A DNA stretch of 38,216 nucleotides, taken from positions 30,505 through 68,720 of the forward strand of contig CAYGQI010000001.1 of NCBI GenBank assembly GCA_964351925.1, written 5' to 3'. This DNA comes from an uncultured Anaerolineales bacterium. Lineage in GTDB: Bacteria > Chloroflexota > Anaerolineae > UBA7937 > B3-Chlor. Under the pieces are notes generated by a model. The model was not told the origin of the DNA. It saw only the letters and a list, made by a program, of their open reading frames with translations, and did no database searches. The translations under genes and the position numbers were made by a program. Positions 4,985 to 25,141 of the stretch are shown here, piece after piece (position 1 is the first letter of the stretch; each line of letters opens with the position of its first letter).

Positions 4985-5980
4985 ATGCCTAGCAATGTAA
5001 ATGAGACCGAGTATGCGAGTGCCGTAAAGACTTCTTACGAGCGCCGCTTGCTCACCCGAGCACTACCTCGACTGATCCACACGCGCTTTGGTGATCAGGC
5101 GAGAGTCAACCGCGGCTTCGGAACCCTTGAGTTCCGCAAGTACGCAGGTCTGTCAGCTGTGACGACTGCGCTGGACGAGGGCAACACCCCGAACAGCCAG
5201 CTTGCACCGAGCCTGTCTTCGATCACCATCACTCCTCTTTGGTACGGTGCTTGGCTCGGCTTCACAGACAAGATCGACATGGTCGCCTTCGACCCACTCG
5301 TCTCAGAAATGAGCGCGATCCTGGGAGAGCAGGCTGGTCTTTCGATCGACACGCTGACCCGCAACACCCTCGTGGCGGGAGCAACGGATGACTTCTCAAA
5401 TGGTGTGGCTGCTCGTGCCAACCTGGCCGCTGGCGACAAGATCGCCTACGCGGACTTCCTAGTTCAGATCGCTGAGTTGGAAGCAGGCAACGCACGTCCG
5501 GTCGATGGCCGCTACAAGGTCATCATCCACCCATACACGTGGGCAACGCTGATGCAGGATACGACCTTCGTGACCCTGTTCGCACGTGAAGCCAACAGTG
5601 CGATCCGCAGCGGTCTCGTGGGGACGCTTCTGAACTGCGACATCTACGTGTCAAGCAACGCAGCCAGCTACACACTTGCTGGTTCAGGCTCAGCCTACAC
5701 TGTTTACTCAGCGCTGTTCATTGGTGCAGAGAGCTACGGTGTCTACGGCATGGGCGACCTGACCCCGAACTTCAACATGGACGGGTCTGGTGCAGAGTAC
5801 AAGAACATGACCGGCATGAAGGTGAAGCCAGTCAACATCATCATCAAGGACCTGGGCTCAGCCGGAACGGCAGACCCATTGAACCAGCGCGGCACGCTTG
5901 CGTGGAAGTGCGCGCACATTGCCAAGATTTTGAACAGCGCGTGGATCAGGGACCTTGAGCACATCAACGACATGAGCTAG
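4985..5980 (+). CDS. Major capsid protein (HK97-fold type)
   Basis: 331 aa with a GAGGTG RBS. Position after the scaffold, and capsid-like sequence pattern (FRKY..L....LDEGNTP...PLWYG). Followed by a strong hairpin. Confidence 0.75.
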   Translation: MPSNVNETEYASAVKTSYERRLLTRALPRLIHTRFGDQARVNRGFGTLEFRKYAGLSAVTTALDEGNTPNSQLAPSLSSITITPLWYGAWLGFTDKIDMVAFDPLVSEMSAILGEQAGLSIDTLTRNTLVAGATDDFSNGVAARANLAAGDKIAYADFLVQIAELEAGNARPVDGRYKVIIHPYTWATLMQDTTFVTLFAREANSAIRSGLVGTLLNCDIYVSSNAASYTLAGSGSAYTVYSALFIGAESYGVYGMGDLTPNFNMDGSGAEYKNMTGMKVKPVNIIIKDLGSAGTADPLNQRGTLAWKCAHIAKILNSAWIRDLEHINDMS

Positions 5981-10669: not shown

Positions 10670-13168
10670 ATGGCTAATCCTCCGGTAACAGGAACCATAG
10701 AGCTGGACGGAAAGCCCTACCTGATCAACATCGAGAGCTGGAGGGGGAAGGACATCGTTGACTTCTCCCCTCCTGCCTCTGTTCCGGGCACGGGCACCAT
10801 CTACTCTGACTTGGGCTTGTATCAGCCCATTGCCATGCTGGACTTCAGTCACGGCATCGGCTTCGTTTGGCATACAGACGAGTCGGGGTATCTGAACACC
10901 GAAGGCTACATTGACACACGTCACTCGAACCTTGTCACGCTCTATACCCAGGAGACCCAGAAGACGGGCGGCTTGGCGATGCAGCGGGAAGGTGGGGTGA
11001 CGTTTGGCAACTACATCTACTTCTGGGGCACAGGCGGCGTAGAGCGCTGGAGTTCCGGTTCCGGCTTCGAGACCGTCAACTTCAAGAGCGTGACGGTGGA
11101 TACCGCAGCAGAGGCCAAGGTGACGGCGTCTGCTACCACGACTGCCTCCTTTACTGTAGGGGCAGATGGCAGCAACCGCATGTTGGTCGTCCTGATCGCT
11201 ATGGAGACGACCCAGACTGTTAGCACTATCACCTACGGCGGCGTGTCGATGACCGAGATCGACAGCATCTCATCGACCTCCAAGGTTTGTGCCTATCGCC
11301 TGTTGGCCCCGGCTACAGGAGCCAACACCCTCGCCATTACCCTGGGAGGATCAACGGACTGGGAATACTGTGTCATCTCGCTACTCAATGTGGACCAAGT
11401 CAGCCCGACGGGAGTGGCATCCAAGAACACGGCCTCCGCTCAGACATCGTCATCTATCACCCCCGCTGCCGTAGAGGGGAACTTGGTGCTGGACATCTTG
11501 TACAAGGTGGGAGCATCAACCGACACCTTGACCATCGGAGCTCTCCAGACACAGCGCATGTTGCAGTCTGACTCCAATGCTACGGCTACGCAGGGTGCTG
11601 CATCGACTGAGCCGTGGTCTACAGGCACAACCGTCACGATGAGCTGGACCTGGACGAACGCACGAGACGTCAGGCACATGGGGTTTGCGGTCAACCAATC
11701 TACTCATCTCGTGGCTGTCAACACCATGTTCTCAACGGGCGGCTACCTGTTCATGTGCCCGGACGGAGAGCGTATCAAGAAGTCCTCAACGGGCGGCATC
11801 ACCGCGAGCGGGTGGTCAGATGCTGGTGTGAACAGCAGGTCGGCTGACTACAAGTGGATGGCCATGCACGGAGGCTACGTCTTCGCGGGTAAGGACTCCA
11901 AGTCCATTGTCTACTATGACAGCTCGGAGACCCTAGCCAGCCTGTGCGGCGATCCTGCGGACGACACCACAGAGGTCTATGCTGGAGCCACAAGCGTCTC
12001 AACCATCCAGGGACTGTCCTACAACAACTACTTCTTCGCCTCTCGCCAGGACGGCATCTGGCAGATGGACCAGACAACCACCCCGTACACGATGAAGCCT
12101 GTCCTTCCATTCACGGACGAGGTGTCGAGCTACAACCTGCGCTGCATGAAGGTAAGTAACAGCTACTTGTACTTCTCCGTGCGAGACAGGCTGTATCGCT
12201 GGAATGGCTCTGCGCTGACCGACATCACCCCGAGCCGATTGACAGCCGATTGGCCGTTCGTCATGTATGGTCAATTCGACAACTTCGTGTCATTTGGCAA
12301 GTGGCTCTTCTTCACCGCCCGCACGAGCGCGACCACATACACAGAAAGCATCATCTGTTGGGATGGGGTGGGCTACCACAAGCTGTGCAGCCCGATCACG
12401 ACTGGCGTGGGTTCCATCACCTTCATGACCTACGACACCACCAACAACTACCTATGGTATGGAACAACCGATGGCTCTACTCACTCGATCTTTGAAATCC
12501 CGTTCAACGAGCGATCAGAGTATGCATACGCTCTCTTCCCGATCACGGGCACGAACGCTCTCACCTCAAGCCGAGTTGACTGTGGGTTCAGGCGTGTCAC
12601 GAAGTCAGCTCCGTTTCTACTGATCACAGCGCAGAACCTGACGACCGCCCGCTATATCCGGGTCTACTACAACGTGGATGACACTGGGTGGATTCAGTGG
12701 GCAGACGTCAAGAACGACGGACTGACCCAACTGGACTACCCTGGTGGTCAGATGTCCTTCGAGGCCGAGTCCTTCCTACAGCTGAAGTTCCAGCTCGTGA
12801 CGGACAGCTCATCCCAAAGCCCTATCCTAGAGGGTGCCATCCTGATGGTCATGCTTCGACCGGATGTCCACTGGGGCTACACCTTTGACATCCAGGCCAG
12901 CCGAGGCATGCTCTATGGTGGCTTTGCTGAGAGACGCTCTGCGGCGGACATCAAGGATGACGTCCGTGGAGTACGCAACTCAAAGTCTCCGGTCAAACTG
13001 GTGAGCCCGTTTGGTGAGGTGATCTACGGGTACATCTCATCCGTGAGCGAGACCCCGGTTGAGTACAACGAGGAAGGCGGCATCAGTGCTGGTAAGGCAG
13101 AGATCGAGATGGTACTGCGTTGCTCATTCGTGGAGTCGCTTGAAGTTGGTTCTTCTGAAGAGGGCTAA
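10670..13168 (+). CDS. Beta-propeller-repeat tail protein (nozzle/tubular-B-like) carrying an inserted ~200-aa beta-sandwich-like module
   Basis: About seven blade-like repeats (GNYIYFWG, GGYLFMCPDG, GGYVFAGKD, NNYFFASRQDG, NSYLYFSVRD, GKWLFFTAR, NNYLWYGTTDG). An insert at about nt 11087-11705 resembles the products of 15307-16026 and 16027-16755. Confidence 0.5.
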   Translation: MANPPVTGTIELDGKPYLINIESWRGKDIVDFSPPASVPGTGTIYSDLGLYQPIAMLDFSHGIGFVWHTDESGYLNTEGYIDTRHSNLVTLYTQETQKTGGLAMQREGGVTFGNYIYFWGTGGVERWSSGSGFETVNFKSVTVDTAAEAKVTASATTTASFTVGADGSNRMLVVLIAMETTQTVSTITYGGVSMTEIDSISSTSKVCAYRLLAPATGANTLAITLGGSTDWEYCVISLLNVDQVSPTGVASKNTASAQTSSSITPAAVEGNLVLDILYKVGASTDTLTIGALQTQRMLQSDSNATATQGAASTEPWSTGTTVTMSWTWTNARDVRHMGFAVNQSTHLVAVNTMFSTGGYLFMCPDGERIKKSSTGGITASGWSDAGVNSRSADYKWMAMHGGYVFAGKDSKSIVYYDSSETLASLCGDPADDTTEVYAGATSVSTIQGLSYNNYFFASRQDGIWQMDQTTTPYTMKPVLPFTDEVSSYNLRCMKVSNSYLYFSVRDRLYRWNGSALTDITPSRLTADWPFVMYGQFDNFVSFGKWLFFTARTSATTYTESIICWDGVGYHKLCSPITTGVGSITFMTYDTTNNYLWYGTTDGSTHSIFEIPFNERSEYAYALFPITGTNALTSSRVDCGFRRVTKSAPFLLITAQNLTTARYIRVYYNVDDTGWIQWADVKNDGLTQLDYPGGQMSFEAESFLQLKFQLVTDSSSQSPILEGAILMVMLRPDVHWGYTFDIQASRGMLYGGFAERRSAADIKDDVRGVRNSKSPVKLVSPFGEVIYGYISSVSETPVEYNEEGGISAGKAEIEMVLRCSFVESLEVGSSEEG

Positions 13169-13776
13169 TGGCGTACAGACGCCCGAAGCAGCTTACCTAT
13201 CGGTGGATGCCGACTGCTGGCTCCAAGAAGTCGAAGACCCGCAGAATCAGGATGCCGCAGTCTCCCTATCGTCCTCTCCGCATTCGTGGAAGGGATGCGG
13301 TCAAGGCGAGGGGAGAATGGCAGGTACCGAGGCCGGGCGGGCTGGTTATCCATCGACGCGGCAAGCGCACTCGTACCGAAGGCGTCGATCTGGAATCCAG
13401 GGCCAAGCATGGGCTACGGGGCACTTTGCCAGAGCGCGTCTTCTACAAGGCCCTCGAGGGTCGCTACTTCGTAGCGAACGTAGACTTCGACTTTCAGAGT
13501 TCGATGGACGGGGGGCGGCTGGAGCTTGGGGGCATCTTGGCCGACTTCATCTTCTGGCACCGCAGACTGGTGGTGCAGGTCCAGGGACCGACGCACGAGT
13601 ACTACCTTCGGTTCCGCAAGGACGAGGAGCAGCGAGACGTCCTGACAGACAAGGGCTTCTCCGTATTGGAGATCGATGACGACGATGTATTGGATCAACC
13701 AACGCTTGACGCGTGGCTCCGCCGCAACCTCGATGTTTCAAGAGGTGGTGTTGGCGCTACGTATCGTACTTTGTAA
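13168..13776 (+). CDS. DUF559/Vsr-like endonuclease-fold protein with an Arg/Lys-rich N-terminus
   Basis: TAATG overlap with the upstream gene. The C-terminal TLPERVFYKAL...FDFQ...ADFIFWHRRLVVQVQGPTH...KDEEQRDVLTDKGFSVLEIDDDDVL follows the DUF559 pattern, but has Q-V-Q where E-x-D is expected. Confidence 0.5.
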   Translation: MAYRRPKQLTYRWMPTAGSKKSKTRRIRMPQSPYRPLRIRGRDAVKARGEWQVPRPGGLVIHRRGKRTRTEGVDLESRAKHGLRGTLPERVFYKALEGRYFVANVDFDFQSSMDGGRLELGGILADFIFWHRRLVVQVQGPTHEYYLRFRKDEEQRDVLTDKGFSVLEIDDDDVLDQPTLDAWLRRNLDVSRGGVGATYRTL

Positions 13777-14291: not shown

Positions 14292-14738
14292 ATGGCAAGA
14301 GTTTTCGGTTCAGCAGTCACATCCGAGGTCGCTCTGGCTGCAACTGTGGCCAAGACCGTAGTTCAGCTCGTGGCGGCATCCAATCACAAGGTGGCTCTGC
14401 TGGGATGGGGCGTATTCTTCGATGGCGTCTCAGTGACAGCCGAGCCTATCCAGGTCGTGCTGATGAGACAGACCGACGCGGGCACGGCATCTGCCCTGAC
14501 CTGCCGTCAAACGCAGACCGCCGCTGAGACCCTCCAGACCACGGCCCAGCACACGGCCACGGTTGAGCCTTCGTCAAGCGACATCTTGGATGTCCTTGAG
14601 GTTCACCCTCAGTCTGGCTACGAGATCAAGTTCCCGCCCGGACACGAGATTTGGGTGAACGGCGGGACCCGCGTGGGCATCGTCTGCACGTCTCCGTCTG
14701 TGCTGAACGTCAGAGCCAAGATGTTCTTTGAGGAGTAG
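14292..14738 (+). CDS. Conserved 148-aa tail-module protein, copy A
   Basis: GGGAGG RBS. 89/148 identical residues, with no gaps, to the 18309-18755 product (manual alignment). Confidence 0.7.
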   Translation: MARVFGSAVTSEVALAATVAKTVVQLVAASNHKVALLGWGVFFDGVSVTAEPIQVVLMRQTDAGTASALTCRQTQTAAETLQTTAQHTATVEPSSSDILDVLEVHPQSGYEIKFPPGHEIWVNGGTRVGIVCTSPSVLNVRAKMFFEE

Positions 14739-14960
14739 ATGTACTCAGTCGGAACCCGCTTCGCTTGGCAGAGACGAGCACGTCCGCCTTATGCCGAGGA
14801 CAAGACCTACTGGTACGACGCCAGCAACGTCGTGACCTTCACAGGCATCCTGTCATACATTCTGACGACGCCTGTTACTGGGTTCATCAACTTCTGGACC
14901 ACCGCAGGCAAGACCATCGGCTCGCACTTGGCCTTGATCAAGGTGCCTAGCCGCAAGTAG
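14739..14960 (+). CDS. Hypothetical small protein
   Basis: 73-aa ORF whose ATG directly follows the upstream TAG. Confidence 0.45.
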   Translation: MYSVGTRFAWQRRARPPYAEDKTYWYDASNVVTFTGILSYILTTPVTGFINFWTTAGKTIGSHLALIKVPSRK

Positions 14961-14972
14961 GAGGATACAACT

Positions 14973-15305
14973 TTGGAGCCACTTCGGGGCGTAATGACCG
15001 GATCGAAAGGACAACTCTGCCAGCTGACCTGCGTGGATGATGATGGTATCGCCCAGGACGTCTCTGGCTTCACCGACATCAAGGTCGTAGCTCAGTCAGA
15101 GGACGGGCGCAAGACTGCCATATCCACCGGGGCCTACACGACTGACGGCACGGACGGCAAGGTGCAGTTCTCTTGGGCAGCTAACGACATTGATCGTGGA
15201 GGCGACTGGAAGATTCAGATTGAGTTCCACAAGACCAACACGATCGCCCTGTCCTACATCAGCATCATGGAAGTGGGCGACGCCCTGAGAACCCCGAGCA
15301 CCTAG
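14973..15305 (+). CDS. Hypothetical Ig-like/beta-sandwich small protein
   Basis: TTG start 8 nt after AGGAGG; an alternative ATG is at 14994. The sequence looks beta-rich. Confidence 0.5.
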   Translation: MEPLRGVMTGSKGQLCQLTCVDDDGIAQDVSGFTDIKVVAQSEDGRKTAISTGAYTTDGTDGKVQFSWAANDIDRGGDWKIQIEFHKTNTIALSYISIMEVGDALRTPST

Positions 15306-15306
15306 C

Positions 15307-16026
15307 ATGGCAGACCAGGTCTACTTGCTTGATGACACACATGCCTTGAGCGGCCTGACCACGGGTGCATCGTTTGCCGTCACCGCCGCCTCTGGTACTA
15401 CTTTGCTCGTAGTGCTGGCAAGTGCTCTAGAGAACATCTCCATGTCAGCCTACACCTATGATGGGGACACGATGCCCTACTATGAGCTGGCGTATGGCTA
15501 TGGGGGTGGTGGCTATTCCTGGCTGTGGTATGTCACACCGAAGAGCGGCAGTAAGACGCTCTCCTTTACCTGGAGCGGCAGTCACTACGTTGGGTTTACC
15601 TGTTACCACTTCAAGGACATCTGTGTCTCTACTCCGGTGTACTCAAAGACCCAAGAAGCTGGATATGGCCCCAACTCCACTGGCCCGACTGTCGCAACGA
15701 TCAGCTCTGGGTTCTATGCTGTTCAAGCAGCAGCAACTAACTACGAGACGGACGTCGGTGCCTACCCCATGGACGGCCAGACGACGGACCAACAGTTCGC
15801 AACCTCCGTCAGCGGAAGTGGGGTCTGCTCCCTCTTTCACGATTCTGTAACTGGCGGCTCAGATACCTTTCGTTGGGACTGGCAGGACCACCTTGGATGG
15901 CAGAGCTGGGGGTCTGTGGTTTACCTGCTTCGATCCGAGCTGAGAGTCAAAGAGACCACCGATGTTCGAAGGCCGGTGATGAACTCGGACGTATGGAACC
16001 AGCGTCGAGCTGGGATAGGGTACTAG
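15307..16026 (+). CDS. Beta-sandwich-like module protein (family copy 2)
   Basis: ASFAVTAASGTTLLVVL...YTYDGDTM...PKSGSKTLSFTWSG parallels ASFTVGADGSNRMLVVL...ITYGGVSM...PATGANTLAITLGG inside the 832-aa protein. Confidence 0.6.
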   Translation: MADQVYLLDDTHALSGLTTGASFAVTAASGTTLLVVLASALENISMSAYTYDGDTMPYYELAYGYGGGGYSWLWYVTPKSGSKTLSFTWSGSHYVGFTCYHFKDICVSTPVYSKTQEAGYGPNSTGPTVATISSGFYAVQAAATNYETDVGAYPMDGQTTDQQFATSVSGSGVCSLFHDSVTGGSDTFRWDWQDHLGWQSWGSVVYLLRSELRVKETTDVRRPVMNSDVWNQRRAGIGY

Positions 16027-16755
16027 ATGCCCATCGTCTACGACAACTCTGCCTATGGGGCTTCTGCCTACAGCACATCGTTCACACTGGCCCATACGAT
16101 CACTTCTGGCTCAGGTCTCATTGGGCTGCTAGGTCTAGGCTTGATAGGACTCACAGACCGTATGCCCACCAATGAAACCTACAACAGCGATGCTGCCACA
16201 AACTTGGCTGATAGCTCTGGTGTCTCGATGGATAGGTTTAGAGCGGGCTATCTCTTTCCTCCAGACTCTGGGGCATACAGTTGGGCAGGATCGGCTGGGA
16301 ACTGGGACCTTCTTCTGAGACAATCCATCTCATTCACCGGGGTTGCGTCTCCAACATTCTATCGGGACACAGACGCACACGAAATCTATGCTTTCCAGCC
16401 CACGGCTACTGTCACTCTTACCACAGCGCCCGCCGATGTAGTAGTGTACTGGGGATATGCCCACTCTCAAAACGGAGCTATTGCTGGTAACGGCACTGAC
16501 GTACATGAGTTTGGGACATCTGTGGGCACCTACTATGTCCATGCAGTTCTGGGCTACAAACTGGCAACGTCGGACAGTACGACCATCAACATCACTGGGG
16601 GTTGGGGAACAGATCACTGGAAAGGTGTATGGGCCATTGCTCTCATCAATGGGCCAGCATACGGGTCCGGGCCTGACTTCCCGATAGGATTGGACCGCGG
16701 CCTCGTTGGTCTTGGGGCCAAGCTCCGTAGACGTCAGAGATGGGGGTATAGTTAG
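16027..16755 (+). CDS. Beta-sandwich-like module protein (family copy 3, more divergent)
   Basis: ATG abuts the upstream TAG. TSFTLAHTITSGSGLIGLLGL...PPDSGAYSWAGSAG has the same pattern as the neighbouring gene. Confidence 0.55.
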   Translation: MPIVYDNSAYGASAYSTSFTLAHTITSGSGLIGLLGLGLIGLTDRMPTNETYNSDAATNLADSSGVSMDRFRAGYLFPPDSGAYSWAGSAGNWDLLLRQSISFTGVASPTFYRDTDAHEIYAFQPTATVTLTTAPADVVVYWGYAHSQNGAIAGNGTDVHEFGTSVGTYYVHAVLGYKLATSDSTTINITGGWGTDHWKGVWAIALINGPAYGSGPDFPIGLDRGLVGLGAKLRRRQRWGYS

Positions 16756-18300
16756 ATGACCCTCGGATACGGCGGCGACTTTACCTACACCTACAACAAC
16801 AAGCGTATCCACGTCTTCCACTCAGCAAGCAGCACTTGGGTGTGCCAAAGTGGTGGGGATGTGGAACTACTCGTGATTGCGGGTGGCGGTGGAGGAGGGT
16901 CAAGCTCTCCCACCTATTGGGAAGGTGGCGGTGGTGGAGCAGGCGGGCATATCTATGAGGCATCCCACACCGTAGCACCAGGGAACTATACCGTCACTGT
17001 AGGAGGGGGCGGAGGGACCAACAACAATGGCAATCCCTCCATCTTTGATACTCACACGGCGGTCGCGGGCGGGGCAGGAGGCGGTGGGGTCAACAACGAT
17101 CCTGGTAGTTCTGGAGGATCGGGCGGAGGCGGTGGGGCCTCTGGCGCTGCTGGTGCGTCTGGAACTAGTGATCAGGGATATGCCGGTGGTAATTCAACCA
17201 GCAACAATGGTGGTGGAGGCGGCGGATCAGGCGGAGTGGGCGGCTCTCCAACTACAGCTGGCGTTGGAACTTCCCGCAGTATCACAGGACTTGCTTACAC
17301 CTTCTCCAGTGGTGGAACCGGCAATAATGGAAGCTACGCTCGCGACAGTTACACGGGTCATGGTGGACCGGGCAGCAACACAAGTGGTGGGTCTGGAGGA
17401 ACTGGCGGATCGGGCGTGGTTGTATTGTCCTATGACTGTACGGACACGGCCTACATGTCTGCCGAAGGAACTGGTGGGACCATCACCGCAAGCGGGCTAG
17501 ACAGAATCCACACCTTCACATCCTCTGGCACTTTCACTCCAGTAGGAGGGGCAGGCTACGCCAGAGTTCTTGTAGTGGGTGGAGGTGGTGGTGGAGGTAA
17601 TGGTGGTGGTGAGTGGGAGGCTGGCGGAGGCGGAGGCGGTCACGTCATGTATGACTCACTCTGCTACATCGGTGGGGCTACGACTGTCACAGTAGGAGCA
17701 GCAGTGGGAGCGGCGACTGTTGGTCAGAACTCATCCTTTGGTTCATACAACCTCTCGTTGGGAGGTGGGTACGGAGGTAGTTCATCTCCTGGCGGTCCTG
17801 GTGGTTCTAGCGGTGGCGGAAGCTATTCCCAGAGTGGGGGGTCTGTTCGAGCTGCTATCCCATTTGGGTATGTGGGAGCACATGGAACAAGTGGTCCCAA
17901 CTACGGTGGAGGCGGAGGCGGAGCTGGAGAGGTAGGAAACACGGATGGCGCTCGCTACGGCGGAGACGGTATCATCTGCACCATCTATGACGGCTCCAAC
18001 ATCTATTATGGCGGAGGAGGAGGAGGCGCTCCATCTGGCCCAGGGGGAGATGGGGGTGGTGGAACTGGAACAGGCGGGACCGGGGGCTCAGGTTCAGCCA
18101 ACACAGGCGGCGGCGGGGCAGGCGGCTACTCAAGTGGTGGAGGAAATGGCGGTAGTGGCATTGTCATCGTTCGCTATACTATCCTGCCAGTTGCCGCCCC
18201 TTGGCCAGACTTGATCGGATTGACACAATCGTCTGCTGGTCCCATGCAGACATCCATGAAATCAGCACCACGTAGGCGTAATAGGAACGCCTACTACTAG
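16756..18300 (+). CDS. Glycine-rich tail fibre-type protein with two tandem glycine-rich domains
   Basis: Two similar halves. Half 1: RIHVFHSASSTWV..VELLVIAGGGGGG...GNYTVTVGGGG...GSGVVVLSYD. Half 2: RIHTFTSSGTFTP..ARVLVVGGGGGGG...TTVTVGAAVG...GSGIVIVRYT. Confidence 0.65.
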   Translation: MTLGYGGDFTYTYNNKRIHVFHSASSTWVCQSGGDVELLVIAGGGGGGSSSPTYWEGGGGGAGGHIYEASHTVAPGNYTVTVGGGGGTNNNGNPSIFDTHTAVAGGAGGGGVNNDPGSSGGSGGGGGASGAAGASGTSDQGYAGGNSTSNNGGGGGGSGGVGGSPTTAGVGTSRSITGLAYTFSSGGTGNNGSYARDSYTGHGGPGSNTSGGSGGTGGSGVVVLSYDCTDTAYMSAEGTGGTITASGLDRIHTFTSSGTFTPVGGAGYARVLVVGGGGGGGNGGGEWEAGGGGGGHVMYDSLCYIGGATTVTVGAAVGAATVGQNSSFGSYNLSLGGGYGGSSSPGGPGGSSGGGSYSQSGGSVRAAIPFGYVGAHGTSGPNYGGGGGGAGEVGNTDGARYGGDGIICTIYDGSNIYYGGGGGGAPSGPGGDGGGGTGTGGTGGSGSANTGGGGAGGYSSGGGNGGSGIVIVRYTILPVAAPWPDLIGLTQSSAGPMQTSMKSAPRRRNRNAYY

Positions 18301-18308
18301 GAGGAAAC

Positions 18309-18755
18309 ATGGCAGCTTTGAATGGTGTAGCACTGACGTCTGAGGTGGCCCTTGTAGCGGCTACGCCTAAGACGGTCATCCAGCTGATCGCGGCGTCCAA
18401 CCACAGGGTTCGTGTCCTTGGCTGGGGCGTCTTCTTTGATGGTGTCAGCGCCACGGCTGAGCCAGTGCAGGTGCGTCTGCTCCGTCAGTCCACCGCGGGC
18501 ACGATGTCGGCTTTGACCCCAGTAGAGATGCACCCTGCGGACGAGACGATGCAAACCACAGCCTCGTATGGGGCATCTGCTGAGCCGACAGCCGGTGACG
18601 TACTCGATTGTATCGAGTGCCATCCCCAGGGCGGCTACGAGAAGTGGTTCCCGCCCGGATACGAGGTAATCGTGCCCGGCAGCGGGAGGCTTGGTCTGGA
18701 GCTTACAGCACCAGCAGGCGTGAACGTCAGAGCGAAGTTCTTCTTCGAGGAATAG
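18309..18755 (+). CDS. Conserved 148-aa tail-module protein, copy B
   Basis: AGGAGG RBS. 60% identical, with no gaps, to the 14292-14738 product. Confidence 0.7.
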   Translation: MAALNGVALTSEVALVAATPKTVIQLIAASNHRVRVLGWGVFFDGVSATAEPVQVRLLRQSTAGTMSALTPVEMHPADETMQTTASYGASAEPTAGDVLDCIECHPQGGYEKWFPPGYEVIVPGSGRLGLELTAPAGVNVRAKFFFEE

Positions 18756-18758
18756 TCC

Positions 18759-19598
18759 ATGGCCGAACCGTCTGGAAGCAACTTCCCAACGTCGCTGGAC
18801 GACGCCACGTCTCTGTTGGCGGCTGTGACCAACCAGAAATCCTTTGTGGTTTCTGGTGCTCATGGCGGCGGGGCCACAACCATCACTGTCACCGGGGCCA
18901 TCTCTGGCGTTACAGCCCCAGGCTATGTGATCAACGGACGCACAGGAGAGATTGTTCACTTCGGTGGCATCTCTGGCTCTGACTTCACGGGATGTACTCG
19001 TGGGGCAGACGGCACTTCGTCCACCGGAATGAACGACTTGGATGTACTCTATCATGCCAGTGTGGCAAAGTACCACAACCAGCTACGAGCAGCTGCCATA
19101 GCCATCGAGACGATCTTGGGAGTGAGTCCGAATGTGATCGATGATACGGTGGCGGCATCCGCCAGCCCCACGTCGGTCGCTCAGTATCTCGACATGGTGG
19201 CGAACAGACTCAAGGCCATCACTGGCGAGGCCAGCTGGGTCACAGCTCCCGACGCCTCCCTCTCCACACTCAACGGGTACTTCTCCACCCTCACATGGAC
19301 GAACTTCACGTATGAGCACGGCTGGGTAGACTATGACACTACCTACAACCCTGGCGGATATGTCAAGGACCCGTTTGGATGGGTTCATCTGCGGGGTTTG
19401 GTTAGGACTGGGACTGTGGGAACGAGTATCGCCACGCTACCGGCTGGCTATAGACCATCTCACATAGTGTTGTGGGATTCACAGGCCAATGGTGCCCTGT
19501 GCAGGACGGACGTCAATCCATCGGGCACCGTCGTTGCCAGCTCTGGTAGCAACGCCTGGTGGTCTCTCGAGGGCTGTGTCTGGTTGGCTTATCAATGA
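18759..19598 (+). CDS. Tail fibre / receptor-binding-type protein
   Basis: 279 aa. C-terminal GWVHLRGLV..G.....IATLPAGYRP....W....G.........G.V.....N.WWSLEG resembles a globular fibre-tip pattern. Confidence 0.5.
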   Translation: MAEPSGSNFPTSLDDATSLLAAVTNQKSFVVSGAHGGGATTITVTGAISGVTAPGYVINGRTGEIVHFGGISGSDFTGCTRGADGTSSTGMNDLDVLYHASVAKYHNQLRAAAIAIETILGVSPNVIDDTVAASASPTSVAQYLDMVANRLKAITGEASWVTAPDASLSTLNGYFSTLTWTNFTYEHGWVDYDTTYNPGGYVKDPFGWVHLRGLVRTGTVGTSIATLPAGYRPSHIVLWDSQANGALCRTDVNPSGTVVASSGSNAWWSLEGCVWLAYQ

Positions 19599-20194
19599 CC
19601 GATCCTAACGTCGAGGGCAAGATAGAAGCGATAGTGGGTTATGGGGATGACCCGGAGCACATCTCGGCGGTCCCGCTACGTGCCTACATTCAGCGCCCAT
19701 GGCGTCTCTTCCTGACAGGCGCGAGGAGCATAGGCAACTATGCTCTTGCATCCGGAACGATCCTGATTGATCTCGTTCCAGAAACCTCTGCCCTTTATCT
19801 GGCCTACTCCACATTGACCGGGGATGCTGATGCCCACTCGTGGGGAGAAGCATACGCCTGGGGTTCAGCTGACCTGTGTTGGGGAGGCGTCGAGTCTCTG
19901 CATTATGTCGAGCCAACCTTCGATCTGGGCGAGATTCTGTACATCTCTCCAGACTCACAGGACATCAAGGTTGAGTCGGGGTCCAAGCATGAAAGCCAGG
20001 TGTGGACGCAGACAGGCGGGATCATGCGCGGGCATCCTGCTCAGTGGTGGGTGTCCTACATGCCCAGCCACATCGTGGACTACGGTTTCAGCTCGGCATC
20101 CAGCAAGACAAGGATGGGGGACCTGTCAGGCACCACCAGCGCCGAGATAGCTCCACACGGCACCGCCAACGTGCGAACCAAGGGCGGTATATGA
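19595..20194 (+). CDS. Hypothetical tail-module protein
   Basis: ATGA overlap with the upstream stop at 19595-19598. 199 aa. Confidence 0.55.
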   Translation: MTDPNVEGKIEAIVGYGDDPEHISAVPLRAYIQRPWRLFLTGARSIGNYALASGTILIDLVPETSALYLAYSTLTGDADAHSWGEAYAWGSADLCWGGVESLHYVEPTFDLGEILYISPDSQDIKVESGSKHESQVWTQTGGIMRGHPAQWWVSYMPSHIVDYGFSSASSKTRMGDLSGTTSAEIAPHGTANVRTKGGI

Positions 20195-20655: not shown

Positions 20656-21081
20656 ATGAGTCTATCGAACGCTTCCGAGAATGATGTCCTGAAGATGTTC
20701 TTGCAGGGCACCGATCCGTCTTATCGTTCTGGAGCTACCCAGTACATGGCCCTTGTGTCGGACGCTGGAGGCGGAGGCAGCGTGAGTGAAGCTACTCCTA
20801 TCGCCAACGAGCTGACCTACACGGGCTATGCCCGAGTGCCGCTGACCAAGGCAACAGCTTGGACCGACAACGGCTCCAACTTCACCAACGCGACGCAGGT
20901 TCTGTTTGGCAAGAGAACCGACGGCGGAGCCACCCAGACGGCGACAGCGTTCGTGGTGGTTGACACCGACAGTGGAGCCATCAACATGGGCATCATCGGG
21001 GACTTGACCGCCGATTTGGACATCAGCCAGAACATTCAGCCCCTGTTCGAAATTGGAACGCTAACCGTCACGGCGGAGTAG
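20656..21081 (+). CDS. Hypothetical virion protein
   Basis: AGGAGG RBS. 141 aa. Confidence 0.6.
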   Translation: MSLSNASENDVLKMFLQGTDPSYRSGATQYMALVSDAGGGGSVSEATPIANELTYTGYARVPLTKATAWTDNGSNFTNATQVLFGKRTDGGATQTATAFVVVDTDSGAINMGIIGDLTADLDISQNIQPLFEIGTLTVTAE

Positions 21082-24190: not shown

Positions 24191-24389
24191 CAAGACACCA
24201 TGGAATGCCTTCATCATCTTGGATGAGGTCCTCGCCTCCTTTGGTGAATCTGGAGGAGGCGGTCCTAGTGGTGCAGCAATGCGAGTCCACTGGGGCAGGC
24301 TGGACAATCAGAGAGCTCATAGGCCAGGTGGAGGAGACTCAGTCTTCACCGCCGTTGCTGGAGCTACGAGGAAGAGGAAGAAGAGATGA
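24183..24389 (+). CDS. Hypothetical small ORF upstream of the endolysin
   Basis: 68 aa. ATGA overlap with the endolysin start. Low-complexity, basic C-terminus, no TM segment. Confidence 0.3.
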   Translation: MPSKTPWNAFIILDEVLASFGESGGGGPSGAAMRVHWGRLDNQRAHRPGGGDSVFTAVAGATRKRKKR

Positions 24390-25141
24390 TCCAAGGACAA
24401 GACTACTCACACTACAACGCCAAGGTGAACTTCCCGCTGGCCATCAAGAATGGTCAGAAGGTCTTCTACCTCAAGTCGTCCGAGGGCAACAACTGGAGCG
24501 ACGACACCTACGAGGAGAAGCGCCTGGCCTGCATCCCTACCAAGGCTCCCTTCGCTCCCTACCACTTCATGAAGATGGCCTACACGGCTGTCAGTCAGGC
24601 GGCATGGTTCAAGAAGTGTGCTCCAGACCCAACACCTCTTCCACCGATCGCAGACATCGAGCAGCACCCGGCTGAGCCGGACAACCTGCTCATCCCTATG
24701 GCCAAGAAGCGCTCACATGTACAAACGCTTCTCCTAGAGACCGAGAGGCTGTTTGGTCGCAGGCCCATTATCTACACTGGGGTCTACTGGTGGAAGGACA
24801 ACATCGGGGACGTGTCTTGGGCGAAGGACTACAAGTTCATCATCGCTGGCTACCTGTTCTTCAAGCAAGCCATCCCTGCCAACTTCAACATCTGGTGGCC
24901 AGGACCCCGCACCCTGTTCTACATCCCACGCGAGAACGTGATTGGATGGCAGTGGGCGGGCGACATCCCGAACATCAGCAATACCACATACCCCTGGTCT
25001 ACTGGAGCTCAAGACTTCAACGTGTTTGACGAAGTTCAGATCGCTGCTCTCGTGAGCGGCAGTACAGAGACGCCTCCGCTGACTGAGGCCGAGAAGCTTG
25101 ATCTCGTGTACAAGTGGTATCTCGAATCTCACGGAGGCTAA
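24386..25141 (+). CDS. Endolysin, glycoside hydrolase family 25 (muramidase)
   Basis: GQDYSHY (D-x-S-H-W/Y box), SSEGNNWSDDTY, APYHF, PPIADIEQ: the usual GH25 motif order. Confidence 0.75.
   Translation: MIQGQDYSHYNAKVNFPLAIKNGQKVFYLKSSEGNNWSDDTYEEKRLACIPTKAPFAPYHFMKMAYTAVSQAAWFKKCAPDPTPLPPIADIEQHPAEPDNLLIPMAKKRSHVQTLLLETERLFGRRPIIYTGVYWWKDNIGDVSWAKDYKFIIAGYLFFKQAIPANFNIWWPGPRTLFYIPRENVIGWQWAGDIPNISNTTYPWSTGAQDFNVFDEVQIAALVSGSTETPPLTEAEKLDLVYKWYLESHGG

Follow-up and report, generated by a model that had tools for sequence, protein, structure and literature searches.

The window, by which we mean the whole stretch of 38,216 nucleotides that was analyzed, carries two paralogous genes that each encode a protein of 148 amino acids: copy A (14292..14738, + strand) and copy B (18309..18755, + strand). 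The two products align by BLASTP without gaps, with 89/148 identities and 113/148 positives (E 7e-66), and the ORFs and shared motifs described in an earlier sequence-only reading of this DNA are all present. Shine-Dalgarno sites lie upstream of both (GGGAGG 5' of A, AGGAGG 5' of B), and both copies are retained in three close relatives. Orthologues of A are 84–89% identical in the related loci L001, L074, and L077, and those of B are 72–80% identical in L001 and L074; for the same genomes, identity in the capsid protein (72%) and in an 832-aa protein (66–69%) lies below that of A and B. The dN/dS ratio is 0.04–0.15 for A and B, with dS saturated, and these comparisons point to two conserved, functional copies under strong purifying selection. 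B falls near the family consensus, while A is a derived paralogue on a long stem branch of the tree. The copies are not sisters in the free tree; joining A and B in one clade is not rejected by an AU test (p 0.70) and yields a tree even better than the free one, so that both transfer of one copy and duplication within the lineage fit these two results. A scan for promoters and terminators between A and B gave no signal exceeding shuffled expectation.

As previously listed, copy A is followed by genes for proteins of 73, 110, 239, 242, and 514 aa and copy B by genes for 279 aa and 199 aa (211 aa from a GTG start at 19559). The 73-aa gene (14739..14960, +) starts directly behind the stop codon of A (TAG ATG). 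Residues 1–18 of its product, MYSVGTRFAWQRRARPPY, are identical in two relatives and differ by Y2F alone in a third, and the 54 nt coding for them show 10–13 nucleotide differences among relatives, all but one synonymous; the remainder of the protein retains about 45% identity within the window's clade. The 110-aa gene (14973..15305, +, TTG start) is 63–70% conserved beside the 73-aa gene in 4/4 relatives. Both ORFs are real genes, with products 55–70% identical in four related contigs. Two variable module proteins follow. The 239-aa protein (15307..16026, +) shows weak likeness to an insert of the 832-aa protein (E 0.001) and to the minor tail protein family phrog_2106 (E 1.2e-3), and relatives carry two to three different proteins of 229–246 aa at its position. 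The 242-aa protein (16027..16755, +) shares 44% identity with a 243-aa protein of L001. Paralogy of these two genes found no support in BLASTP, which detects no similarity between them (E 3.5). The 514-aa protein (16756..18300, +) matches Pfam Gly_rich_2 (E 2e-28) and phrog_2295, in keeping with its earlier description as glycine-rich, and its gene is missing from the equivalent position in L001, L074, and L077.

Behind copy B, the 279-aa protein (18759..19598, +) was proposed to be a fiber, and its modular make-up bears this out: over its N-terminal 117 aa, it shares 73.5% identity with a 352-aa protein behind copy B in L074, its C-terminus is unrelated and has been swapped, and its C-terminal half matches PHROG minor-tail-protein families (best E 3.9e-9). 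L001 has no 279-aa gene, and there a counterpart of the next protein in the window (34% identity) lies directly behind B. In the window, this protein (19559..20194, +) has 199 aa from an ATG at 19595 or 211 aa from the GTG at 19559. Further downstream lies a 141-aa member of the Gp80 family (20656..21081, +), which matches Pfam PF23140, the fiber I bead of podophage GP4. Upstream, the 832-aa protein with its minor-tail-protein-like insert (10670..13168, +) is the positional equivalent of a large tail protein encoded two genes 5' of the 148-aa gene in many loci and is by position a candidate nozzle-like large tail protein. Iterative HMM searches with the window's neighboring genes in 72 viral loci found almost no homologues beyond L001.

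The sequence-only reading did not recognize the 148-aa family, and neither did our searches: Pfam (E<=0.01 for A and B), PHROG, and PDB-sequence searches with A, B, and two family profiles found nothing. The family nevertheless comprises 3178 clusters at 50% identity. A tblastn search with A, B, and one divergent member gave zero matches in 50,697 cultured phage genomes, and a scan of 185,579 species genomes yielded 15 MAG contigs and no isolate genome. Members are almost always stand-alone proteins of 146–155 aa, with natural double-domain tandem fusions in P0121, P0148, and P0264, and they share about 60% identity between phages that cannot otherwise be aligned. With a median pI of 5.2, the family is acidic, and its C-terminal EE is nearly invariant. 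By hhalign, it shows no kinship to the window's 204-, 140-, and 141-aa proteins.

The AF2 model of the 148-aa protein (pLDDT 89, pTM 0.84) has 12 strands and zero helices, and its predicted fold is an all-beta jelly roll. The Foldseek comparison that had been suggested as a check returned generic viral single jelly rolls from the PDB. A BFVD lead, Pantoea phage LIMEzero ORF57, was set aside, being the last gene of its genome with neither a known function nor a Pfam hit. Some phages, such as Bordetella phage BPP-1, use single jelly rolls for cement or decoration, and the best PDB fold hits of our model were capsid jelly rolls. The 148-aa protein could then be a structural protein unrelated to fibers, for example, capsid decoration, cement, or a tail-tip component, whose adjacency to fiber genes reflects operon order only. 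We regard this as very improbable. In loci that show both genes, the 148-aa gene lies 5–9 kb downstream of the capsid gene and never adjoins it, two other small paralogues directly behind the capsid gene are better candidates for decoration, and the tendency of the next gene to show plug and rope features, described below, has strong statistical support.

In ~90% of 92 loci, a single copy of the 148-aa gene is present, placed midway through the receptor-binding region, with lectin-like genes upstream and a rope- or fiber-like gene downstream. The proposal that each copy heads a fiber-gene cassette does not fit this arrangement, which makes the cassette boundary arbitrary; the genes at 15307–18300 could equally belong with B. 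The related idea of two fiber sets, each with its own adaptor copy, survives in part. Both copies are conserved, and in the synteny comparison that had been called for, the two-copy layout recurs in L001 and L074/75, with variable genes behind the copies. However, the conserved partner appears from the sequences to be the immediately downstream gene only, by way of a short basic N-terminal peptide, or “plug.”

In most loci, the next gene starts 0–12 nt past the 148-aa stop codon. A conserved fusion of the two products by read-through or frameshifting was rejected, as only ~45% of the gaps are multiples of 3. The first 20 residues of the next-gene products are basic (net +2.5, compared with +0.45 in 1039 control ORFs, p 2e-10), and repeats of 16–21 aa exceed the control 95th percentile in 17/47 of these products (p 3e-6). 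Past residue 25, BLASTP sorts the partners into 34 clusters with no relation to one another. Profile A5, built from the C-terminal ~150 aa of the partners, matches residues 462–615 of PDB 26gp_Q/44nx (E 5e-25) and phrog_26502 (E 7e-18). This domain was found in 18 loci. It always follows the 148-aa gene at a distance of <=2 kb, and in 14/18 it is encoded by the directly adjacent gene. By sequence, the C-terminal parts of the downstream partners in these 18 loci are homologous to the nozzle-insertion C-terminal domain of gp39 from podophage A1002, which is made up of beta-propeller-C and platform-C. Two adjacent 148-family genes lie directly 5' of the rope homologue in L020 and L082, and three occur in tandem in L081.

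Small, tightly coupled genes of this kind could also encode a non-virion assembly factor, that is, a chaperone that holds the downstream protein during assembly, by its basic and aggregation-prone N-terminal or repeat region, and is released afterward. The small size of the 148-aa protein, its tight translational coupling, and the EE codons 0–12 nt ahead of the next start agree with such a role. However, known fiber chaperones (T4 gp38/gp57A, lambda Tfa) are encoded after the fiber gene and co-vary with its C-terminus, whereas in all loci the 148-aa gene precedes its partner and is highly conserved while the partner bodies form 34 unrelated clusters. Tandem multi-copy arrays and fused double domains are also more typical of structural subunits, and we give the chaperone reading very little credence. 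The EE codons themselves are GAGG-containing pairs (mostly GAGGAG/GAGGAA) in 41/56 cases and GAAGAG or GAAGAA in 15/56. The latter share speaks against retention of EE solely as a Shine-Dalgarno site and indicates that at least some of the constraint acts on the protein.

Chain-like tail fibers, whose small subunits are strung along a rope protein, were first reported between 2023 and 2026, in GP4, VP1, and A1002. [quoted passage not shown] Two kinds of bead dock in A1002, gp40 (147 aa) and gp41, which share 16% identity, and the known Gp80-type beads act as dimers. A1002-like phages carry two small bead genes just 5' of the rope gene. The corresponding phiR18 genes encode, in order, proteins of 171, 147, and 620 aa; the 147-aa protein matches 44nx_B, a 147-aa chain deposited with A1002, and the 620-aa protein matches 26gp_Q (gp39). 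In related loci, though not in the window itself, the 148-aa gene stands next to the rope homologue in this same order. The closest known relative of the downstream partner, as opposed to the 148-aa protein, is A1002 gp39 (26GP/44NX; phrog_26502). As in gp39, the N-terminal part of the partners is extended, with a basic start and very variable length (50 to about 770 aa). Unlike gp39, the partners have regular 16–21-aa repeats and no inserted Ig-like domain, and in three loci rope and C-terminal domain are separate genes.

Based on the homology of the partner to gp39 and the shared gene order, we read the 148-aa protein as a docking partner, either bead or terminal cap, of rope-like fiber proteins, an interpretation that in our judgment stands at about even chances. 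The 148-aa proteins would be small all-beta jelly-roll virion subunits that bind an extended peptide segment of the product encoded immediately downstream. The bound segment would be the short basic N-terminal plug, often followed by 16–21-residue repeats, and the subunit would sit on a chain-like fiber as a bead or at its end as a cap. An acidic family with a near-invariant C-terminal EE complements the basic plug, and the double-domain fusions fit a subunit that, like the known beads, functions as a dimer. We infer the physical binding, the virion location, and the stoichiometry of the 148-aa proteins from these features. Two points qualify the bead or cap reading: such strong conservation is unusual for a receptor-contacting subunit and counts against it, and the partners' repeats could instead form a trimeric fiber shaft.

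The resemblance to Gp80-type beads (A1002 gp40/gp41, GP4 gp80, VP1 gp11) is one of organization. Sizes are similar (140–171 aa against 146–155 aa), the gene is tightly coupled and immediately 5' of a nozzle-rope homologue, and two to three diverged paralogues may stand side by side, with double-domain fusions that are consistent with dimer action. By contrast, the predicted fold of the 148-aa family lacks the N-terminal helix of the Gp80-type model, and the family is far more conserved (~60% identity, compared with 16% between gp40 and gp41). Neither A nor B matches PF23140, although this criterion is insensitive, as phiR18 gp80 and gp81 also fail it despite being the counterparts of the A1002 beads (gp81 matches 44nx_B). 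In hhalign comparisons of the family profile with local Gp80 homologues and with phiR18 gp80/gp81, probabilities were <1%, and a PDB profile search with the family found no bead chain. The model of the window's 141-aa Gp80 member (pLDDT 72) shows an N-terminal helix and ~7 strands, and its top-50 BFVD hits have zero entries in common with those of the 148-aa model. GP4 8JOU was not among the top-50 PDB Foldseek hits of the 148-aa model; these fold comparisons are indirect, and the A1002 bead structures are probably outside the library. The 148-aa proteins constitute a new, non-Gp80 family, unrelated to Gp80 beads in sequence and apparently in fold.

The Pfam match indicates that the window's phage encodes a classical chain-fiber bead as well. 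Since a Gp80 bead occurs alongside a 148-aa protein in the window, L010, and L015, the Gp80 protein could be the bead there and the 148-aa protein could serve otherwise, for example, as a cap or anchor. In a rival reading, the jelly roll is a fiber-to-tail adaptor or collar. Here, it would oligomerize on the tail, for example, as a ring on the head-to-tail adaptor or nozzle, its sockets would take the plugs of exchangeable fibers, and the two paralogues would be two socket types for two fiber sets. Podophage adaptors and collars link fibers to the tail, and small beta-sandwich fiber adaptors with genes of their own have precedents: the 93-aa tail-fiber adapter of GP4 forms a 15-mer, DEV gp53 builds a collar from its N-terminal barrel, and the collar protein of A1002, gp33, is a double jelly roll. 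The 148-aa family resembles them as a small beta-sandwich or jelly roll with single- and double-domain versions. A conserved plug on unrelated partners, together with double-domain fusions, fits a ring-forming socket equally with a bead, and the Gp80 protein of L010 and L015 could fill the bead role.

However, the A1002 rope is held by its C-terminal domain, so an N-terminal socket would be unneeded wherever that domain exists. The tail proteins to be bound vary between loci, whereas the 148-aa protein is conserved, and its conserved neighbor is a rope or fiber, unlike in podophage collars and adaptors, rather than a head-to-tail adaptor. There was also no sequence match to a known collar or adaptor and no collar chain in the top-50 Foldseek PDB hits, although the jelly-roll fold is compatible with one. 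We therefore consider the adaptor or collar reading unlikely, if clearly the strongest of the alternatives. The earlier idea of a common adaptor fares accordingly: the family does lie in the tail-fiber region, but the gp39 homology of the partner points to a rope-docking bead or cap rather than an adaptor from which fibers hang. An analogy for the plug comes from adenovirus, where the penton base, a jelly-roll protein, binds a short conserved N-terminal fiber peptide, the shaft repeats are ~15 residues long, and the distal part varies. This is analogy only, from an unrelated virus lineage and a capsid vertex context, with no homology implied.

Within the window, the docking reading would pair A with the 73-aa protein, a candidate docking peptide or mini-rope, and B with the 199/211-aa protein, perhaps also with the 279-aa fiber. 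The 279-aa protein directly behind B lacks a basic plug, which places the candidate partner of B one gene further on. There, the 199/211-aa protein has a basic motif, R-x-Y-I-Q-R-P-W-R-L-F-L, that is similar to the plug motifs of downstream genes elsewhere; counted from the ATG start, it lies ~35 residues from the N-terminus. With one partner for each copy, two kinds of docked units would be present on the virion, much as gp40 and gp41 are in A1002. Unlike in Gp80-type systems and in gp39 itself, neither candidate partner (73 aa, 199 aa) has the gp39-type C-terminal domain, and a search of the window and its close relatives detected none. Only the 148-aa gene, which is shared, and the plug motif thus connect the window to the rope analogy.

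Taken beyond this locus, our results link a large metagenome-only family (3178 clusters at 50% identity, with no Pfam, PHROG, or PDB entry) to homologues of a rope protein. This suggests that the chain-fiber architecture is common in uncultured phages, with a different small subunit. A broader possibility, which we hold tentatively and think somewhat doubtful, is that thousands of otherwise unrelated uncultured phages share the 148-aa jelly roll as a near-universal and highly conserved socket or bead, a common standard to which exchangeable rope-like fibers attach by a short basic N-terminal plug. If this is true, chain-like fibers, known to date from three cultured podophages, would be common among environmental phages and would be built with a second, non-Gp80 bead fold, and the number of paralogues (one to three, or fused pairs) would set the bead types per fiber. 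A conserved plug peptide with a very conserved partner would be a compact protein-peptide interface, and the pairing would help explain the exchange of fiber modules between distant phages. The same pairing could also mark the receptor-binding region when viral metagenomes are annotated.

Copy A (14292-14738) and copy B (18309-18755), both on the + strand and both encoding 148 aa, are paralogues, as the sequence-only reading had proposed. BLASTP aligns their products without a single gap at 89/148 identical and 113/148 similar residues (E 7e-66), and an ORF check recovered the same gene content after each copy as had been listed. Each gene is preceded by a good ribosome-binding site. At the nucleotide level the copies are 62% identical, and the sole exact-seed repeat between them lies at their 3' ends. 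A scan found no promoter- or terminator-like signal between copies A and B, and the capsid gene (4985-5980, a phrog_1357 match), the tail genes, the two-copy region, and the endolysin gene (24386-25141) read as one operon. For the two proteins labelled as beta-sandwich modules, of 239 and 242 aa, BLASTP detected no relationship to each other and the label is putative; the 239-aa protein has weak similarity (E 0.001) to an insert of the 832-aa protein.

The duplication is genuine and old, and it has been maintained. Among close relatives, A is 84-89% and B 72-80% identical, compared with 72% for the capsid protein and 66-69% for the 832-aa protein, and dN/dS is 0.04-0.15 for A and B, with synonymous sites saturated. 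We compared neighborhoods across 72 IMG/VR loci carrying the 148-aa gene, and BLASTP and iterated HMMs found essentially nothing of the window's other structural genes in these loci beyond the closest relative. The few exceptions are capsid homologues with 25-27% identity, found in loci whose 148-aa protein retains 43-46%. The 148-aa protein is the slowest-evolving protein of the module. In the family tree, A groups with its orthologues in a long-stemmed clade, and B sits near the family consensus; an approximately unbiased (AU) test did not reject A and B as one clade (p 0.70). These data are compatible with duplication within the lineage followed by divergence of A, though one copy could instead have been acquired by transfer.

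A single copy within the available sequence is the rule (83/92 loci). More than one copy occurs in the window's clade (the window and related loci L001 and L074/L075), two adjacent copies in L020 (9516-10438), L082 (9515-10444), and L054, three in tandem in L081 (838-2238), and two with one gene between them in L043. Profile searches also revealed chains in which two domains are naturally fused (P0121, 303 aa; P0148, 299 aa; P0264, 317 aa). Together with the arrays of two to three paralogues, these fusions sketch a possible path by which a single jelly roll could become double.

The family is new to databases. Neither A nor B matched Pfam or PHROGs, family profiles matched no PDB sequence, and tblastn with A, B, and one divergent member found none in 50,697 cultured phage genomes. 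By contrast, a word-indexed search returned 322 proteins, nearly all of 147-150 aa and 56-68% identical to A, and an exhaustive profile search returned 3178 clusters at 50% identity with E<=1e-3 (1761 of these <=1e-10). Members are acidic (median pI 5.2), with a mean column identity of 75% in a 32-sequence alignment, invariant blocks that include WGVFFDG, RQ(T/S)xAGT, AEPT, and HPQ, and a C-terminus that is almost always EE. An alignment-based AlphaFold2 model of the 148-aa protein (pLDDT 89, pTM 0.84) has 12 strands and zero helices. Foldseek against the PDB gave no more than weak, generic matches to single jelly rolls (E>1e-3, TM 0.3-0.4), namely capsid proteins of nodavirus, STMV, circovirus, and birnavirus, the HS1 needle knob, and Ena fibres. 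Against BFVD, uncharacterised phage proteins matched the model at TM 0.7-0.86. One of them, LIMEzero ORF57, was set aside as a functional lead, being the last gene of its genome and having no known function.

The conserved partner of the 148-aa gene lies directly after it. In most loci, this next + strand gene starts 0-12 nt past the stop codon. The first 20 residues of its product carry a net charge of +2.5, against +0.45 for 1039 control ORFs taken from these loci (p 2e-10), with a net charge of at least +3 in 60% of these N-termini vs. 20% of controls. Recurring motifs in this short basic peptide, or "plug", include (R/H)P(V/A/L)S(K/R)xxP(Y/F/W) and RRGxx(L/F)(L/F)P. Past residue 25, the next-gene proteins fall into 34 unrelated BLASTP clusters among 52, and 17/47 have internal repeats with a 16-21-aa period above the control 95th percentile (p 3e-6). 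The 69-73-aa protein that follows A in the window's clade begins with the 18 residues MYSVGTRFAWQRRARPPY, identical in two of three relatives and altered only by Y2F in the third. The codons for this stretch differ at 10-13 nucleotides per 54 nt, all synonymous apart from Y2F, and the remainder of the protein is ~45% identical. The terminal EE codons of the 148-aa gene are GAGGAG or GAGGAA in 41/56 family genes and lie 0-12 nt before the next start (14730-14741 and 18747-18761 in the window), indicating that they double as the partner gene's Shine-Dalgarno site.

Members of the largest partner cluster have a common C-terminal domain (~150 aa), preceded by N-terminal regions that vary from 50 to ~770 aa. 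The profile of this domain matches phrog_26502 and residues 462-615 of the 620-aa PDB chain 26gp_Q (E 5e-25; entries 26GP, 26LA, and 44NX). This chain is gp39, the "nozzle-rope" protein of Pseudomonas podophage A1002, in which residues 469-620 (beta-propeller-C and platform-C) complete a truncated nozzle and the rest, residues 3-32 included, forms a rope ~300 Å long (PMC13730344). Eleven dimers of gp40 (147 aa) and gp41 (171 aa) dock on this rope by beta-sheet augmentation to give a "chain-like fibre", with related fibres in GP4 and VP1 (PMC13730344). The KPP25-like phage phiR18 encodes, in order, proteins of 398, 171, 147, and 620 aa. The last matches 26gp_Q (1420 bits), and the 147-aa protein matches 44nx_B, a chain deposited with the A1002 fibre whose 147-aa length is that published for gp40; by length alone, the 398-aa protein is a candidate nozzle base gp42 and the 171-aa protein a candidate gp41. 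Taken together, this gene order and these matches place the bead genes of the solved system, which encode the small subunits docked on the rope, directly before the rope gene.

The gp39-type domain occurs in 18 of our loci, always downstream of the 148-aa gene and in the next gene in 14/18. Two loci, L020 and L082, match the A1002 arrangement exactly: two small paralogues side by side, followed by the rope gene. In L013, L014, and L033, this nozzle-insertion domain has its own 155-158-aa gene, located behind a repeat protein. The length of rope homologues varies from 216 to 931 aa with the number of 16-21-aa repeats, as in the downstream genes of L002 (10451-12241) and L006 (10457-13252), the latter a single-copy locus whose 931-aa rope has ~40 copies of an LNQSWALAxYxYDTY-like unit. 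A search of the window and its close relatives detected no gp39-type domain.

By analogy with A1002, the best-supported reading is that the 148-aa jelly roll is a putative bead or cap in a tail fibre of the rope type, where it would bind the protein encoded next through that protein's extended, basic N-terminal segment or its repeats. Paralogues A and B would then serve two partners. A serious rival is an adaptor or collar role, in line with the earlier proposal of two fibre cassettes, each attached through its own copy of a common adaptor.

A bead role raises the question of kinship with Gp80 (PF23140), the bead of GP4 chain-like fiber I. The window has its own member, a 141-aa protein (20656-21081) that scores above the curated cut-off (E 1.3e-12) and weakly matches GP4 PDB 8jou_a over its full length; the phrog_240 label "head protein" for its family is probably a mis-annotation. 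A and B do not match PF23140, and profile-profile comparison found no similarity between the 148-aa family and either local Gp80 homologues or the phiR18 proteins. PF23140 also misses the phiR18 counterparts of the A1002 beads, which makes sequence a poor bead criterion. Even so, we do not file the 148-aa family under Gp80. The 141-aa member is modelled with an N-terminal helix, whereas the 148-aa model has none, and the two models share zero BFVD neighbours among the top 50 of each. The 148-aa family thus has the genomic position of a bead with a different predicted fold. Because the 148-aa and Gp80 genes lie within 2 kb of each other in L010, L015, and the window, the 148-aa protein may not be the sole bead; it could be another type of bead, or could cap the N-terminal plug of the rope.

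The proposed division into two sets was upheld in part: the arrangement recurs in relatives, but the set boundaries are arbitrary. In the window's clade, A forms a conserved triad with a 73-aa and a 110-aa protein. Behind this triad come two or three variable proteins of 229-246 aa, to which the window alone adds the 514-aa Gly_rich_2 protein. B is followed by a modular fibre gene, missing in L001, and then by a 184-260-aa protein whose internal basic motif resembles those of the plug. The modular fibres of the window (18759-19598, 279 aa) and L074 (12898-13956, 352 aa) are 73.5% identical over the N-terminal 117 aa and have unrelated C-terminal domains, with the break directly after the motif YHNQLRAA(A/I)(I/L)AIE; the pair is a classical fibre mosaic. 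In phages with a single copy, lectin-like genes precede the 148-aa gene (Pfam Laminin_G_3 in 15/50 upstream neighbours, Gly_rich_2 in one upstream neighbour), so the genes at 15307-18300 may go with B just as readily as with A.

Nearby, a DUF559 (Vsr-fold) gene (13168-13776) sits between the 832-aa gene and the next gene. It is present in the window, L001, L075, L076, and L077 and absent from L074, which has an identical 148-aa protein (compare L074 8857-9330 with L075 8858-9469). The following gene is called shorter where DUF559 is present (146 vs. 222 aa). This polymorphism is typical of a free-standing homing-endonuclease-like insertion.

Across 185,579 species genomes (one per species), the 148-aa family was found on 15 MAG contigs only (L079-L093), seven of them binned as Planctomycetota or Phycisphaerae. 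Two of the seven, at 127 and 191 kb, are possibly prophages or mis-binned phage. These Planctomycetota and Phycisphaerae bins provide a possible host lead for the 148-aa family.
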